Assembly: GCA_010405405.1 (NCBI GenBank)
Contig: MU004231.1
Location: 2,123,860 to 2,187,859 of the forward strand
Direction of reading: 5' to 3'
Length of the DNA: 64,000 nucleotides
DNA from: Microthyrium microscopicum
Taxonomy: Eukaryota
A program made the position numbers and the translations under genes. The notes beneath the pieces were generated by a model. That model had not been told where the DNA came from, made no database searches, and was given only the letters and a program-made list of their open reading frames with translations. Shown in pieces: positions 10,448-17,752 of this stretch; positions within the stretch are counted from its first letter, which is position 1, and each line of letters opens with the position of its first letter.

Positions 10448-12079
10448 CTAAGCCTTCGTTTCCTTTGATATGCCATGAGACTTTTCATCCTCAACAACAT
10501 CGCTCTTCTTTTCAATATCACTCTCACCATCCTCTCTCTTCCCATCTTCCAATGTTTCTCTGCCTTCTTCCGCTGCAAGTTCTGTCAAAGCCTTGTGCGT
10601 TGTCGTGCCCTCTGCTTTTTCCAAGTCCCCATCCTTCCCTTTATAGAACACCGTTTCCGCAGTCCTTCCATCAGCACTCATCTTATCCTTTTTACGCATA
10701 CTGAATCCTCCATGCCAACCAATCCAGCCTTTCTCCCAAGGCCCTCTCAGCAAAGCAAACAAAATCGCGGCTCCAATGAAGCCTACGCTTGCACTTCCGC
10801 TTAGTCTCCAACCGCCTTGCGCAAAAACATGGTTACCCGCACTCGTGCCCATCAACTGTCCCAAGAACGTGCTCAACATATACGCCACGTTGACGCGGTT
10901 CCTCGCATTTGGCTCAATGCTATATATCGCATTTCGATTCGCGATCTGCGCTGTCTGCATGCCAAAATCATTCAGCACCGCTTGTACCACTGGCCCAGCT
11001 ACACTAAAGGTGCCTGTATACGTGCCTACACAGATACCAGCCAAAGTGGTCACACATCCGACTAGCACGCTGAAGTGCGGGACATATCTGTCGCTGACGA
11101 ACCGTGCATAAAATGGGTTCAGCAACATGCCTGCGATGCCTATCAGCCCGAATAGACCCACAATCAAGGGACTGTAGTTGTATGGCTCGCCTGCTAACAG
11201 GAAAGTAAGCGTTGTCCAGAAGTTAGTGAATGTCGCACTGCTGAAGAAGGCGACGAGACAGGCTTGTACGAGGACAGGGTTTCGAGTGAGGATTGGGAAT
11301 ATACTCCACAGCATGTAGAAGTAGTTCAGGCCGGCTGGGTTCTTGGATGGGTAGTCGGGCATGAAGAGCCAGAGGAGGCCGAATATTAGGTATTGGAGAC
11401 CACAGGAGAGCCAGTATATGGTGCGCCATGGGGTGTAGTTGGTGAGTGTTCCAGAGAGGACGCGCGCAATCAGGATTCCGAGGGCAAAACCGGAGACTAC
11501 TATAGCGAGAGCTGTGGCGCGACGGTTCGGGGGCGCAAGATCACCGACGAGTGGGAGCATGAGTTGGGGAGTGACGGTGGAGATGGCTACGACGAAGGAT
11601 ACGCCTTGGAAAACGCGGAGGGATTTTGTGACGCAGAGAATGATCCTGGTTTGAAGTTAGTGGGAGTCTATATCAATCGGTTTGGGTATTTACCATAAGC
11701 TTGATGTCAAGAAAACTAAAGATAGAACAAATGGTCGTCTTCTCAAGATATCTCCCAGTGGACAGAGTAGGAATAGCCCCAAAGCGTACCCAGCTTGCAT
11801 GAGCGTTGGTATCAAAGAAGCCTCCTCAAATGTAGTGTGGAATTCTGCCGCCAAAACATTCAGGATGGGATGATTATAGTACAGATTGGCGACGGTGAAT
11901 GCTCCAGCAAAGGCGAAGAGTACGTTCAGTGCCATGCTGAACTTTGGTGGATTCTCCGGATCCCATCGACAATTTGGAGGAGTCCATATTATGATCTTCC
12001 AAGCTTTTTGCAATAATACAGGAACTTTTCTCTTGTGAGTCGGTTCCGTCGAATGATTCTGTGGTGTTTGTGAACTCAT
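10448..12079 (-). CDS. MFS transporter (YnfM-like/uncharacterised fungal MFS); 2 exons, intron ~11646-11693
   Basis: 'FTVANLYYNHPIL', 'QAGYA.GL..LCPLGD...RR', 'PL.GDLAPP.RRA.AL.IV.SG...GIL.AR..SG' and 'ARNRVN..YM' motifs; many TM segments; two ORFs joined by a GT-AG intron. Confidence 0.88.
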
Positions 12080-13593
12080 TGTAGCGATTGAGTTCGGAGA
12101 TCACCCAGACTAGTAAAGTCGATGTTGTTTCCCAACAAGAACGAAGTCCCAGCGTACTGACATTGCTGAAAAGTGAGATCTATCGGATTTAAAGAGAAAT
12201 GTTTCTGAAATCCACAAGTCGGACTTGAGTCGTTGACGATACCGGCTTGATGATTGACGGCAGGATCTTGGCGTGTTATTCCCGAAGAGGTTGGACTCGA
12301 TTTGCCAGGCAGACTAAAATTATGCAGGTGGAATAGGTTAGATGTAGGTAGCTGTTAGTTATGCCCGTGAGTAGACTAAGCAAGCAGAAGATGTAAAGAA
12401 GTCATGCAATTGTTGGTTTGATCGGTTTCTAGGTACTGTGTTGCAAATCGCTATTCCCATTTTCAGCCTTATGCTAGCCAGGTTCAGCCTTGTCAAACCC
12501 AGACCGACCTTTGTTTCGTAAATCCCATCAATACAACGCGAACCTGGAAAACCTAAATCCGGGAGAATCTCTTGACATTCCCTTCGAGTATAGCTTCGTC
12601 AAAGTCTAAAATTCATCTAGACCATCTCGATACCTCACCTCGAAGGTAAACACGAGTCCAGAGGGCAGACAGTAACGGCTTACACTTTTCTCTTTCTAAT
12701 TCGTATCTCCCTCAAGCAAATGCGCTTTGTAATAGCATATGTGACTCCCAGATGATTGGGGTTCCTAGGCCGGGAACTCGGGTTTTTCGGCAGTTCCCAC
12801 ATTTCATGGTCGGACTGATGTGTTACTCGTTCAGGAGGCCACGATTACGCCCTGGGTCACTGCTTTAATGCGTTATAACGCCTAGCCATAAAACTTATCT
12901 CAACTTCTGAACTTGGAATTGACCCTGCTCTTAACTTGACGCACAATGCTATTTATATCTCAGGAATGATGCCAGCACTCTACGAAGGTGAAAATATCCG
13001 TGTCTGCTCCATCAATGGAATTTCAAGCATTGACATACAATCACAAAAATTCAACTCTATTTCCAAACATGTTTGATATGGTACTTCTAACTTACGCACC
13101 AGATAGGAATGCAAGCACTTCATCCTGGAGCATCGTTAGCAGACAATGTAGTTTCCGGACATATCCACAAGCCAAAAAAGGATGGACAAAAGATAGAATG
13201 CTCTGCCAGTTTAGCCGAGTTGAAAGAGTGGTGGCTATCACCATTATTTTAATCCAGAGATTACAATTCTAACCAAAAAATTCCCGTTTTGAGACGCTTT
13301 TGAAATCGAGTGCTGTAAATCTCCCTTATAGCATAGAACCGCTGATTTGCCATCGAATGCGCTGGAAATTGAAGCACTCTCTCCTTATAGAGTGCGATGG
13401 GAGACATAGTGATTGATGGGAGCGCGCCATCTACCATACTTTTTCCAATGTATTAGAGCGTCGGCAGATATGATACGTACCTGAAAAGGTACAGTACTGC
13501 AACGTTCAGAACGCAGCTTGGGCACTTGGAGGGGCAAAAAAAGGCCACACAGGCTCCAATACCACCCTGAACTTTGGGACATATCAGAACAGC

Positions 13594-13599
13594 AAAAAA
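13594..13599 (-). terminator. Putative RNA polymerase III terminator (T6) 17 nt downstream of the tRNA-Gln
   Basis: Run of six A on the plus strand, i.e. TTTTTT on the tRNA strand, shortly after the discriminator base. Confidence 0.6.
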
Positions 13600-13615
13600 G
13601 AATGAAATTGATTTT

Positions 13616-13751
13616 AGGTCGTGCCCGGATTCGGACCGGGGTTACCGGAATATGCCTTTGAAATCAAAATCCGGTGTGATAACCACTACACTCTGTTAAG
13701 AGTTAGCAAGCGCAAAGTTTAGGATGTTTGGGGAAAAACTTGCACACAACC
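13616..13751 (-). tRNA. tRNA-Gln(TTG) gene interrupted twice: canonical 13-nt intron after position 37 (13651-13663) and a 51-nt spliceosomal-type GC-AG insertion between positions 8 and 9 (13693-13743); T-loop has U55->C; functional status unknown
   Basis: Minus strand: GGTTGTGT|[51 nt]|AGTGTAGTGGTTATCACA-CCGGA-TT-TTG-A-[TTTCAAAGGCATA]-T-TCCGG-TAAC-CCCGG-TCCGAAT-CCGGG-CACGACC-T. Acceptor GGTTGTG/CACGACC, D stem GTG/CAC, anticodon stem CCGGA/TCCGG and T stem CCCGG/CCGGG all pair. Confidence 0.85.
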
Positions 13752-14254
13752 ACACGGACGTAACGTCCAAACTTAGCTCCCAAAGGAGTTAGTTGTTTTG
13801 TCATTAATGACAAATCTGGTGAAAGATTTGGGTTACATTTGGATGACTTTTGATGAATTTGCAGCATTAAATTGCACCAAAATGCAATATATTCCAGCTG
13901 CATATCTTCGCCTCCACGCAACCCGTTACTTCGATAAACCTTCTTTGTCTATTTGTTTTAAAGCACTTGATGAAAGAACCTAGCTACTGGGAGCTAACGA
14001 GGCTGATGGATGGGAGTGCGTCAATTATTTTGCCATGCCGTTGGACATGGAGAGCCAATCTATTCAGTGATTTGATGAGAAGCTACGCAAACTGCCTAAT
14101 TATGGTAGAAATAGCCCCCGGATGATAGAGCGAAGTATCTGTCAAACATCGCAGTCGGTGGTAGCAAATAAGTGACTTTGTCCATCGGCATTAAAAATTT
14201 ATGGTGGTCTTATTTCAACAAGCGCAAATCTTGATTCTATCTAATCAGCAAATT

Positions 14255-16261
14255 CTACTTGCCCAAGTCTAGCTTCTTTTCCGTATCTGCGGCCAGTTTC
14301 GCCGCTTCCTTCTTGAGACGTTTCTTCTCCTTCTCCCGCTCCTTAGATGCCTTCTTTGCTGCAGCTTTGGCAGCCTCCTCCGCCTTGGCCTTCTTTAGTT
14401 CTTCTCCACCATATGCCAGTTTCCATTCCTCTAGCTTCTCTACCGGGATTACTTTGAATAGAGGTGCAGGTGTTCCGAGTGTATGGCCTGGTTTGAGTTC
14501 GTTTGATTCCCAGGTATCTGGAATATGTGCTTTCGGTTCGAGACCAAGCTGTTGAAAGATGGCCTCGGCAGTGCTAGGCATGTATGGGTAGAGAACGCCG
14601 GCAAGGAGTTTTATTAGATTGAGTGCCTGGCCGATAACAGCAGCGCATCGATCAGGCTCTTCGGAGAATAGACGATTGTCCAGTTTGTTGTCTTGTAGAA
14701 GCTTATTGCCACATGATGAGATGTGCAGAATGTCTGCAATAGCTAGTCGAAGTTTGATTGCTTCCATGTGCTTGATGTAAGTGGTTAGATGGGCGTTGAC
14801 CTCTTTCTTAGACTCATCCAAGCTGGCATCTGTAAATTTGGTGTAGTCAGGAACAGTACCATCCATTTTGGCGTGACAGAATTTGGTCACTCGCAGAACC
14901 AAGTTGCCGATGTTTTTGAGCAACTCATTGTTGTTGGTGCTGATAAACTCTTCCCATTTGAATTCGGTGTCACCGCTTTCTGGCCTTCTTGAGAGAAGAT
15001 AGAATCGCCAGATATCGGGGTCGATACCAGTGTCTTTTGCGTTCGTGCCAAAGACGCCAACGCCTTTGGACTTGCTGAACTTGCCACCTTCGTAGTTGAG
15101 ATAATCCGTAGCAGACAGCTTGTGGACCTTGACCCAGTTATCACCAGTGCCAAGCTGGGAACCAGGGAAGATGATGGTATGGAATGGTACGTTGTCCTTT
15201 CCCATGAACTGGTATAGAGAAACATTATCAGGGTCCTTCCACCACTTTTCCCAGTTCTTGCCGCCAAGGTCTCCCGCATCAGTATAGTTGTTGGTGATAG
15301 AGACGTAACCAATGCAAGCATCGAACCATACGTAGAACACCTTGTTCTTGTACTCTTCTTCGTCAAGTCCTTTAATACCGGTCGGTATTGGTACACCCCA
15401 CTTGAGATCTCGAGTGATAGCGCGAGGCTTTAAGCCCTTGTCAATCCATGATTGTGTAATGGCAATGCAGTTTGCGCTCCATTCACCCTCCTTGCTCGCC
15501 TTGGAGTACCAATCGGCAATGTTGTCCTTGAGTGAATCGAGTTTAAGGTATAGATGCTTGGTACTTCGTCTCACTGGCGTAGTTCCGTCTACTTTGCAGT
15601 GTGGATTTATCAGCCAACCAGTAGCTTTCTCAGCAGGATCTTGGTCTTGGTCGTCGTCTCCAGCTCGGCGTTCGGGCTCAAATGGATCAAGAAGATTTCC
15701 ACACTTGTCGCATTGATCTCCACGGGCACCAAGATCATGACATATACTGCACTCTCCTTCCACAAATCGATCGGCCAGGAAAGTGTTATGCGCTTCGACT
15801 GGGCAGAAAGGTTGTATGGTCTCGCGTTCTTCGATGAAGCCGTTGTCCCATAGTGAACGGAATATGCTTTGGACGATTTGGGTTTGATGGGGAGTTGGAG
15901 TTTGACCGAATATGTCGAAATCTAATCGAAACCAGTCGTAGATCTCTTTGTGAATTGCGTGGTATTTTGCGCATAGGTCCGTTGGGGTCAACCCCTCCTC
16001 GAGAGCTTTCGTTTCGGTCGCTGTGCCATATTGATCCTAGATTTCGTTAGAGGACGTACCACGCAAAAGAGAATAGACTATACTCACTGATCCGCAGACA
16101 AAGAGGGTAGGAATGCCTCTAGCCTTACAAAATCGAGAGAAGACGTCGGCAGAGAGCACGCTCCCGATCAGATTGCCTAGATGTGGGACGTTGTTGACGT
16201 AGGGAAGAGCGCTGGTGATGAGTATGTTGCGCTGACCTGGGATAGGCAGCAATGGAGCCAT
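14255..16261 (-). CDS. MES1: Cytosolic-type methionyl-tRNA synthetase; 2 exons, intron 16037-16087
   Basis: [16 protein letters not shown] (HIGH-like), [11 protein letters not shown] across the intron, Zn-knuckle Cys pairs, [22 protein letters not shown] (KMSKS-like), Lys/Ala-rich C-terminal tail. Confidence 0.96.
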
Positions 16262-16962
16262 GACCTATTCTTCTTTCTTGTTTGGGGAAAATCAGCTATC
16301 GGATGCCTCTCAAACTTGCTCATGTATCAAAGTTGGGTGTGAGTCCACGGGGGCAGTGGAGTCAGAGCATCGAAATTCCGAGGCCCTGGGAACGCGGGGT
16401 GTGGCGCAGGTGGTCCCACAAGCCACATATCTCCTTTTCCTGCTTGACAACATTACGACGACTCCTTATCCAATGCTACACTACTCCATCTCCCGTGTTT
16501 CCAGCCTCGTCGTCCTGAAATGTACGTGTCCTGAAAAACTGGGCAGAGAGTATTGTAATGGCCCACTTCTCATAGCTATGGTTCTGATCATGTCGACATG
16601 ATACATCGAAAGCCCCTGAACGATGAGCTGCCATACTGAGAGAGAGAGAGCTTGATAAGTAAGAGAGTATGGGTTCAGTCAATGAGGCGACCAAGGCCTC
16701 CGTCAATGTGATCAAATTCGTCAACTCACAGTATCGAATGACGATGAGTGATCTATTCTGGTAGGTAGCTTAACTCGTACTCGATCTTGACTCATGTTGC
16801 TTCGTATTGAGAGCATGGGTGCCCTTCAGTCAAGGCAGCACGATATTTCCTAAGGCGAAGAGGTGCTGTCAGCTATACCAGGATAAAGGCACTTCTGCGC
16901 TGATTGATCTCTTCGAACAGCTCTCTGAAGTCTTCCGTCAACAATACAAACATAGTGTCCAA

Positions 16963-17752
16963 ATGGCAGTAGTAGGACAATCAAGCTTTATCCCTTTGAC
17001 TACAACCTTCACTCCTCCTTCAACATGTACTGAGACGCTTACACTGGTTCTCTTTGCATCCTCCAAATCAGGGACTGTCACATTACCATCAACGAGCATT
17101 TCTACTAGCATCTCTGGATTCTTATCAGATTGCTATCCATCAGACTTGCCGATAATTGAATACTACTCTCCTGGAATCTGTCCAAAAGGCTATACTCGAT
17201 TCTCGGAAACGACAAGGACAACTTCACTAGATAATCGTGAGCTGGCGGAAACCGCAGCATTGTGCTGCCCGAATGGATACACAGGCCAGTCGCAAGCTAC
17301 CGGCTTTCCAACAGCCCACGAGCTTTGCTCTTCTACTGTCAACAACATCGAAAACGCCACAGTGATAGAAATGTTTGACGTGAACAATGATCTTACCAGC
17401 AATATTCCCGATAGCATTCATTTCACTCCTTACCCGTCCTCTATATCTCAAGGTACGGTGACTGCAAGCGGGATCCAGGTTCGATGGAAGAGCGACGATT
17501 TCAACACTACGAGTACCACTAGTAGCAGTGTCAGCACAGCTCCTATAGCTACTACTAGTAGTAGTGGCTCTACCAGCCCAACACTTGTCGGTATGTCTCT
17601 TGTTTGCACTTTTTGACCCACAATTCTACCTATATTTTCCGCAATTGCGTTTGAGAAAGACTGAGGGACTGATTGATGTAGATGGCTCAAGGCCCTGTTT
17701 GATTACAGCTGCTACAGCTTTTCTAACGACTTTTCTGGTTTCTATTTTATGA
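16963..17752 (+). CDS. Hypothetical Cys-containing Ser/Thr-rich protein with hydrophobic C-terminal (GPI/TM-like) tail; intron 17591-17681
   Basis: 'PLTTTFTPPSTC', 'CYPS..YYSPGICP.GY', 'ALCCPNGY', 'IQVRWKSDD' pattern seen in uncharacterised fungal surface-type proteins. Splicing gives an in-frame tail DGSRPCLITAATAFLTTFLVSIL*. Confidence 0.7.

Follow-up and report, generated by a model that had tools for sequence, protein, structure and literature searches.

A tRNA-Gln(UUG) gene copy of Microthyrium microscopicum, most likely disabled, with a spliced insert between nucleotides 8 and 9

In a stretch of 64,000 nucleotides from contig MU004231.1 of Microthyrium microscopicum (the window), a tRNA-Gln(UUG) gene on the minus strand is interrupted between nucleotides 8 and 9 by a 51-nt insert with the signals of a spliceosomal intron. 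Assembled RNA shows that splicing does remove the insert in vivo, and that among long RNAs the dominant event is the removal of 53 nt, the insert plus the last two nucleotides of the preceding tRNA piece. The gene copy is most likely young and disabled. The reading that we favor, with a probability of roughly 0.58, is that of a disabled tRNA-Gln(UUG) gene copy that carries a genuine spliceosomal-type intron at 8/9, is transcribed as part of a low-level, intergenic, non-coding Pol II RNA and loses 53 nt by GT-AG splicing.

Anatomy of the split tRNA-Gln(UUG) gene

The gene consists of three pieces, all present on the minus strand and laid out as an earlier sequence-only reading had described them. 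The displaced 5' acceptor strand (nt 1-7) together with U8, GGTTGTGT, occupies 13751-13744. The 51-nt insert follows at 13743-13693, between U8 and A9. The body of the tRNA, nt 9-73, extends over 13692-13616 and includes a canonical 13-nt tRNA intron in the anticodon loop (13663-13651), where the sequence-only reading had also placed one. The body was recognized with the Rfam tRNA model RF00005, with ARAGORN and by arm-by-arm reading, and the 13-nt intron with the latter two; the acceptor strand was recognized by its pairing and by the cloverleaf that ARAGORN draws after removal of the insert.

Nucleotides 1-7 of GGTTGTGT pair at 7/7 positions, one of them G-U, with the 3' acceptor strand CACGACC (13623-13617), which is followed by T as the discriminator. 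The D arm is GTGTAGTGGTTATCAC; the anticodon stem is CCGGA/TCCGG, with TTG as the anticodon; the variable loop has 4 nt, and the T stem CCCGG/CCGGG encloses the T loop TCCGAAT. By eye, the conserved positions U8, A14, G18-G19, U33, C56 and A58 are all present. One departure was found: position 55 (13634, minus strand) is C, a mismatch column in the Rfam alignment, where the consensus has a conserved U and where the T-loop/B box has the invariant U54-U55-C56. Two T-runs on the minus strand are of concern for transcription by Pol III. A T6 run 17 nt past the discriminator (13599-13594) is the expected Pol III terminator, and a terminator-like T5 run lies within the insert itself (13738-13734).

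In its genomic form the gene is missed by a standard finder, as the sequence-only reading had expected. ARAGORN called no tRNA in the 64-kb window and none in the genomic form of the split locus, and the Rfam match was restricted to 13624-13692 (model positions 9-63), with 30.9 bits, slightly above the gathering score of 29 bits. When the 51 nt were removed in silico, ARAGORN called a 72-nt tRNA-Gln(ttg) with the 13-nt intron and a 7/7 acceptor stem. In this form all four stems are paired and the canonical intron is intact.

The match of the displaced acceptor strand was evaluated by counting. On both strands of the window, 7-mers that pair fully with CACGACC (G-U allowed) occur at 8 of 128,000 positions, and only one of the 8 sites, that at 13751-13744, has T as the next letter. 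In a 200-nt upstream stretch, the chance of such a match is about 0.012 for the 7-mer and about 0.002 with U8 included, with adjacency to GCAAGT not yet required. The runner-up within 500 nt upstream, GGTTGCGT at 13923-13916 (minus strand), pairs at 6/7 positions, which is roughly the chance level. The displaced acceptor strand is a non-chance match, and we conclude that 51 nt were inserted into a once-contiguous tRNA-Gln gene, precisely between U8 and A9. As a separate observation, GGTTGCGT resembles an imperfect second copy of the 5' acceptor strand plus U8, located 172 nt farther upstream than the real one, at a distance of 2 nt from the end (13925) of an RNA contig of the neighboring methionyl-tRNA synthetase (MetRS) gene; no donor-like sequence follows it, and it is probably due to chance.

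The claim that only this register restores the cloverleaf stood in part. By pair counting, removal of 51 nt is the sole removal that rebuilds the 7/7 acceptor stem. However, when 3257 alternative deletions were built by joining other upstream end-points to 13697-13687, ARAGORN reported a tRNA for 38 of these constructs. The program is too permissive for a test of register, so the uniqueness of the register rests on the direct pair count.

The sequence-only reading had pointed to a donor-like GCAAGT, a CTAAC branch motif and a CAG end of the insert, and all three are in place. GCAAGT (13743-13738) agrees at 5/6 letters with the GTAAGT/GTGAGT type of donor; a random insert would start with it at a rate of roughly 2/4096. 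CTAAC lies at insert nt 38-42, and its branch A stands 10 nt from the 3' end. The same spacing is found in an intron of the MetRS gene, confirmed here at 16037-16087 (minus strand) with the length of 51 nt given for it earlier. This GT-AG intron, which is skipped in the RNA run described below, has a GTGAGT donor, CTAAC at the 10-nt spacing and a TAG acceptor. The identity of its host gene was established by a Pfam match to PF09334 at 2.2e-113, with profile positions 1-45 in the exon before the intron and 46-390 in the one after it. Further likely introns in the window, of 50-78 nt, have GTGAGT or GTAAGT as their first letters; they come from a loose regular-expression census, which gave 42 hits versus a mean of 41.1 in 20 shuffles, that is, no excess, and are kept as examples only. 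The insert and the MetRS intron are dissimilar in sequence (global alignment score -11). A BLAST search of the insert against the 64-kb window returned the insert itself and one 13-nt match at E = 0.05, and no further copies in the window; for an introner-like element one would look for numerous almost identical intron copies throughout the genome. The insert thus shows a set of U2-type features: a donor of the local type, a branch motif with a YAG acceptor and, as described below, removal from RNA with GT..AG ends.

Splicing of the insert from a long transcript

The RNA evidence consists of Logan contigs of one public run (X1) from one study, which were mapped on 12000-17000. Run X1 contains 88% of the sampled words of 12800-16100, and its library type is recorded only as 'RNA?'. 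Over the 5 kb the depth varies from 0 to about 1700. The contigs join across the MetRS intron, and the PF09334 match becomes continuous in the joined sequence; because these joins restore a continuous PF09334, we treated the run as cDNA. Cover is absent at 13842-13924 and 12668-12834, and no inference was drawn from these gaps.

One X1 contig skips the insert. It passes from 13746 directly to 13692, so that a 53-nt GT-AG intron (13745-13693, minus strand) is missing, with a donor GT formed by tRNA nt 7-8 (G7-U8). The ends of the skipped segment read CT..AC on the plus strand, i.e. GT..AG on the minus strand. The joint is carried by this 1 contig at a depth of 21.1; its shorter side measures 96 letters, and its position is unambiguous. 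The prediction that a spliced intron resides in the tRNA gene was therefore borne out as far as removal from RNA and the acceptor AG at 13693 are concerned, whereas the donor is the GT at 13745 and not the GC at 13743. Likewise, the search for a splice junction that had been proposed did yield one in a contig, but this junction reflects the loss of 53 nt, lacks tRNA nt 7-8 and gives no cloverleaf.

The spliced contig is 889 nt long (865 nt on the window) and overlaps the tRNA gene, covering 12924-13692 and 13746-13841; the minus strand was assigned to this transcript from the splice dinucleotides. The contig begins at least 90 nt upstream of tRNA nt 1 and runs about 690 nt beyond the tRNA. Its end at 13841 is no proof of an RNA start, which contigs cannot show, and the loose letters at that end resemble what we take to be sequencing adapter. 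The 13-nt tRNA intron is retained. Five T-runs (T6, T7, T6, T6 and T5), including the T6 expected to serve as the terminator, are read through. No ORF longer than 66 aa was found in the transcript, and none of its four longest small ORFs matched a Pfam family. The 12924-13841 RNA looks like a low-level, apparently non-coding Pol II transcript and not like a Pol III pre-tRNA; the Pol II origin is judged from the read-through of the T-runs only.

The two registers differ in the RNA that they give. With the 51 nt removed in silico, a cloverleaf with a 7-bp acceptor stem is obtained, and the RNA is predicted to fold as a pre-tRNA; with the 53 nt removed as observed in RNA, it is not obtained. ARAGORN found no tRNA in the 53-nt-spliced product (the construct a13746_b13692 is absent from the 38 called), and the predicted fold of this product has a shortened acceptor helix and no proper 8-9 linker.

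Among the X1 contigs, which drop minor variants, no 51-nt GC..AG junction (13744 to 13692) was found. The depth of the bin 13670-13836 is 14.4, which is exactly 21.1 x 114/167, so no further mapped contig, unspliced or with 51 nt skipped, contributes there. Contigs keep the dominant path, and a 51-nt isoform of low share would be invisible in them. There may also be a survivorship bias. RNA spliced in the 51-nt register should be a substrate of RNase P and RNase Z and would, once cleaved, be missing from long contigs; given its pre-tRNA-like folding, long contigs that span the tRNA would be biased toward forms that do not fold.

Several observations were made on the neighborhood. Downstream on the same strand lies a gene for an MFS transporter (PF07690; 10451-12374, minus strand), with an X1 depth of 1058, and the transcript across the tRNA could belong to this gene as an upstream form with a long leader. 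In the 3' region of the MetRS gene (14004-14170) the summed X1 depth reaches 1712, versus 735 for the MetRS contig. Two X1 contigs diverge there at 14043/14044, continuing in unrelated letters; of the 10 mapped records, 5 are only 90-95% alike. These signs suggest that the MetRS 3' UTR contains a short element, repeated or shared. Farther away, a block of about 23 kb (24000-47500) has a G+C content of 0.18-0.31, versus 0.43-0.54 in its flanks. Such a composition would suit an AT-rich isochore, a graveyard of repeats or a region resembling a centromere; AT-rich blocks of such a kind occur in fungi with repeat-induced point mutation.

Status of the gene copy and origin of the insert

Type 2 Pol III promoters are internal, and it is the internal promoter that places the start of transcription. 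At the tRNA-Gln locus such a start would be expected to fall inside the insert. A T5 run resembles a stop signal for Pol III and may act as one in this organism. The locus does not have the layout of a Pol III unit: 51 nt separate exon 1 from the A-box region downstream of it, and T5 lies inside the insert. Because of these two features and of C55 in the B-box region, Pol III would hardly make the full precursor. Instead, the locus appears to be covered by the low-abundance, Pol II-type transcript between the MetRS and MFS-transporter genes.

The donor that would restore the tRNA is a GC, and the site actually used by the spliceosome is the obligatory GU two bases upstream, G7-U8. Probably the spliceosome docks on the near-consensus GCAAGT; it cuts at this GU, so that 53 nt are lost and the product is unable to fold as a tRNA. 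The formerly contiguous nuclear tRNA-Gln(UUG) gene would have gained, besides its 13-nt intron, a 51-nt intron of the spliceosomal type between U8 and A9. Most likely the insert was already an intron when it came, through intron transposition or reverse splicing, and not random DNA, because the tRNA structure fixes its borders independently, and these borders are exactly intron-like. A simple history would be that an intron with a GT donor arrived, that a T-to-C change at +2 moved cleavage to the upstream GU, and that a T-to-C change occurred at position 55. If the gene is dead, its death was recent, because every stem of the tRNA is still perfect. Two properties of the locus speak against disablement. 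The rest of the tRNA is flawless, as would be expected of a very young pseudogene as well as of a gene still under selection, and a near-perfect donor stands exactly in the tRNA-restoring register, where a dead gene has no need of one.

The same two properties could mean that the gene works. A functional gene would be transcribed by Pol II and spliced in the 51-nt GC-AG register, its ends would be trimmed by RNase P and RNase Z, and the endonuclease would remove the 13-nt intron; the 53-nt product would be a dead-end by-product, accumulating because it is unprocessable. We regard this as rather improbable. Removal of 51 nt alone gives the 7/7 acceptor stem and a standard cloverleaf, GCAAGT resembles the local donor type more closely (5/6 letters) than GTGCAA, the sequence at the donor used in RNA (from 13745; 3/6 letters), the tRNA body is otherwise intact, transcription extends across exon 1, and splicing removes the insert efficiently. 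Minor isoforms are invisible in contigs, and correctly spliced RNA would presumably be cleaved from long transcripts. However, the 53-nt junction is the sole one assembled, and no other mapped contig adds depth at the insert; C55 stands at a near-invariant position; a GC donor 2 nt after an obligatory GU would be a poor design under selection; and neither the 51-nt junction nor a mature tRNA carrying C55 was seen in the RNA contigs of run X1. The boldest form of this proposal is that of a eukaryotic tRNA made by Pol II, dependent on two unrelated splicing machines, the spliceosome at 8/9 and the tRNA endonuclease at 37/38, and then set free by RNase P and RNase Z. The 53-nt GT-AG product would then be a by-product or an off-switch; this, too, we consider unlikely, to about the same degree.

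That the intron formed in place seems about as improbable as a functional gene. A random 51-nt insertion would have killed the tRNA gene, and splice signals would have drifted into it later (a protointron), with the GT borrowed from G7-U8. The donor in use is indeed the tRNA's own GU within the non-consensus GTGCAA, which lacks G5; such sites have been reported for protointrons in non-coding transcripts (in the available parts of PMC6726248), and the host transcript is of low depth and without a long ORF. Against this, the first letters of the insert are exactly GCAAGT, rarely expected by chance as calculated above, its last ones, exactly at the border with the tRNA, are CAG, and its CTAAC keeps the distance seen in the local MetRS intron. 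Moreover, the spliced form alone was assembled, versus a splicing of typically about 1% in protointrons (same parts of PMC6726248). Random DNA drifting into an intron is hence a less likely origin than arrival as an intron, and on its own an unlikely one. Cleavage by the tRNA splicing endonuclease, with the insert as a tRNA-type intron at 8/9 recognized through a bulge-helix-bulge (BHB) motif, is very improbable. The gene does have two interruptions, as do some algal and archaeal tRNA genes (PMC4090602 and PMC3978253, in the parts available), and the unspliced RNA can still pair its acceptor stem across the insert. In the minimum-energy and centroid folds of 13760-13610, however, the junctions do not lie in 3-nt bulges around a 4-bp helix, and the segment removed from RNA has GT..AG ends 2 nt off the tRNA boundary, which endonuclease plus ligase would not predict. 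The BHB intron was rejected on the fold and on the position of this GT..AG junction. Equally improbable is a coincidence, in which a tRNA fragment truncated at its 5' end would happen to adjoin the ordinary intron of some overlapping RNA, with an 8-mer match arising by chance. The sequence-only reading had itself named such a combination, with an mRNA as the overlapping RNA, as a finding that would speak against it. In favor of a coincidence, the intron seen in the RNA is of the ordinary GT-AG kind and belongs to a long transcript that overlaps the gene. A second match of 6/7 also exists 172 nt further upstream. Chance, on the other hand, is disfavored by the pair count. A 7/7 complement followed by T occurs at 1 site in 128,000 positions (8 sites irrespective of the T), and the estimate of about 0.002 per 200 nt precedes any demand that the donor abut it; the chance acceptor match was rejected on this count.

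Comparison with known systems

The statements below about published systems refer to the available parts of the cited papers. A spliceosomal intron inside a tRNA gene was not described in the literature that we searched (most subscription journals lay outside the scope of the search), and the exact phrase 'spliceosomal introns in tRNA' was absent from it. In their available parts, neither PMC12530127 ('A eukaryote without tRNA introns') nor the review PMC10275265 holds anything on spliceosomal introns in tRNA genes.

Relatives of the interrupted gene were sought with the 19-mer made of AG and tRNA nt 9-25. It gave 0 matches in prokaryote genome contigs and 3 loci in metagenomes; ARAGORN called a tRNA in none of the 3, and Rfam none in L001 and L003, the two on which it was run, L002 being near-identical to L001. 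At 2001-2035 of L001/L002, in AT-rich DNA, a tRNA-Gln-like fragment composed of a D arm and an anticodon stem-loop follows a CAGGTGAG-like stretch. This fragment may be a tRNA-derived piece of an unrelated eukaryote.

Interruption outside 37/38, and two interruptions in one gene, are shared with tRNA genes of Cyanidioschyzon merolae, of cryptomonad and chlorarachniophyte nucleomorphs and of archaea, whose introns occupy odd positions (PMC4090602, PMC3978253). Those introns are cut by the endonuclease, mostly at a BHB, and the nucleomorph ones are 3-24 nt long. The tRNA-Gln insert, in contrast, has no BHB, carries spliceosomal signals and leaves a GT-AG junction in RNA.

Protointrons are defined by inefficient splicing, absence of conservation and absence of a role in expression (PMC6726248). 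Those of Saccharomyces resemble the present case in that splicing takes place in a low-abundance Pol II ncRNA from a 5' splice site without G5. They differ in three respects: the tRNA-Gln locus was assembled as the spliced form alone (among contigs of one run), which speaks against the inefficiency of the definition; its signals are near consensus; and its borders coincide with those of the insertion into the tRNA.

The nearest parallel is offered by mRNA-type introns in the fungal snRNA genes for U6 (a Pol III gene), U2, U5 and U1 and in rRNA genes of some ascomycetes (PMC5855946). They, too, are short introns with pre-mRNA signals in conserved genes for structured ncRNAs, and reverse splicing into an abundant RNA has been proposed as their origin; intron transposition in general is discussed in PMC11146597. 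The host is different, since tRNA is not listed as one in the available parts of PMC5855946. So is the outcome: the splice seen at the tRNA-Gln locus does not restore the host RNA, and its substrate is a long transcript that reads through T-runs and not a Pol III product.

Spliceosomal introns in U6, U2, U5, U1 and rRNA genes are the classic natural hints that introns spread by reverse splicing. Even if dead, the tRNA-Gln locus would be a clean case from nature of a tRNA gene that has gained an intron, because the borders are set independently by tRNA structure and splicing is proven by RNA. It also shows the spliceosome picking a GU two bases from the best donor match. Should the 51-nt pathway operate, it would constitute a new mode of tRNA maturation, and annotation would be missing a class of tRNA genes. 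Should two splicing machines indeed be needed, a tRNA gene invisible to standard finders would reveal a new route of tRNA biogenesis and regulation.

For a disabled gene copy, the comparison to be made is with eukaryotic tRNA pseudogenes. When one of many synonymous copies of a eukaryotic tRNA gene has an insertion at an odd position, it is usually taken for a pseudogene (PMC4090602), and the tRNA-Gln locus is like such pseudogenes in combining a single-copy insertion at an odd position with a departure from an invariant residue, C55. It differs from them in that its insertion is a working substrate for splicing, with exact intron-like borders.
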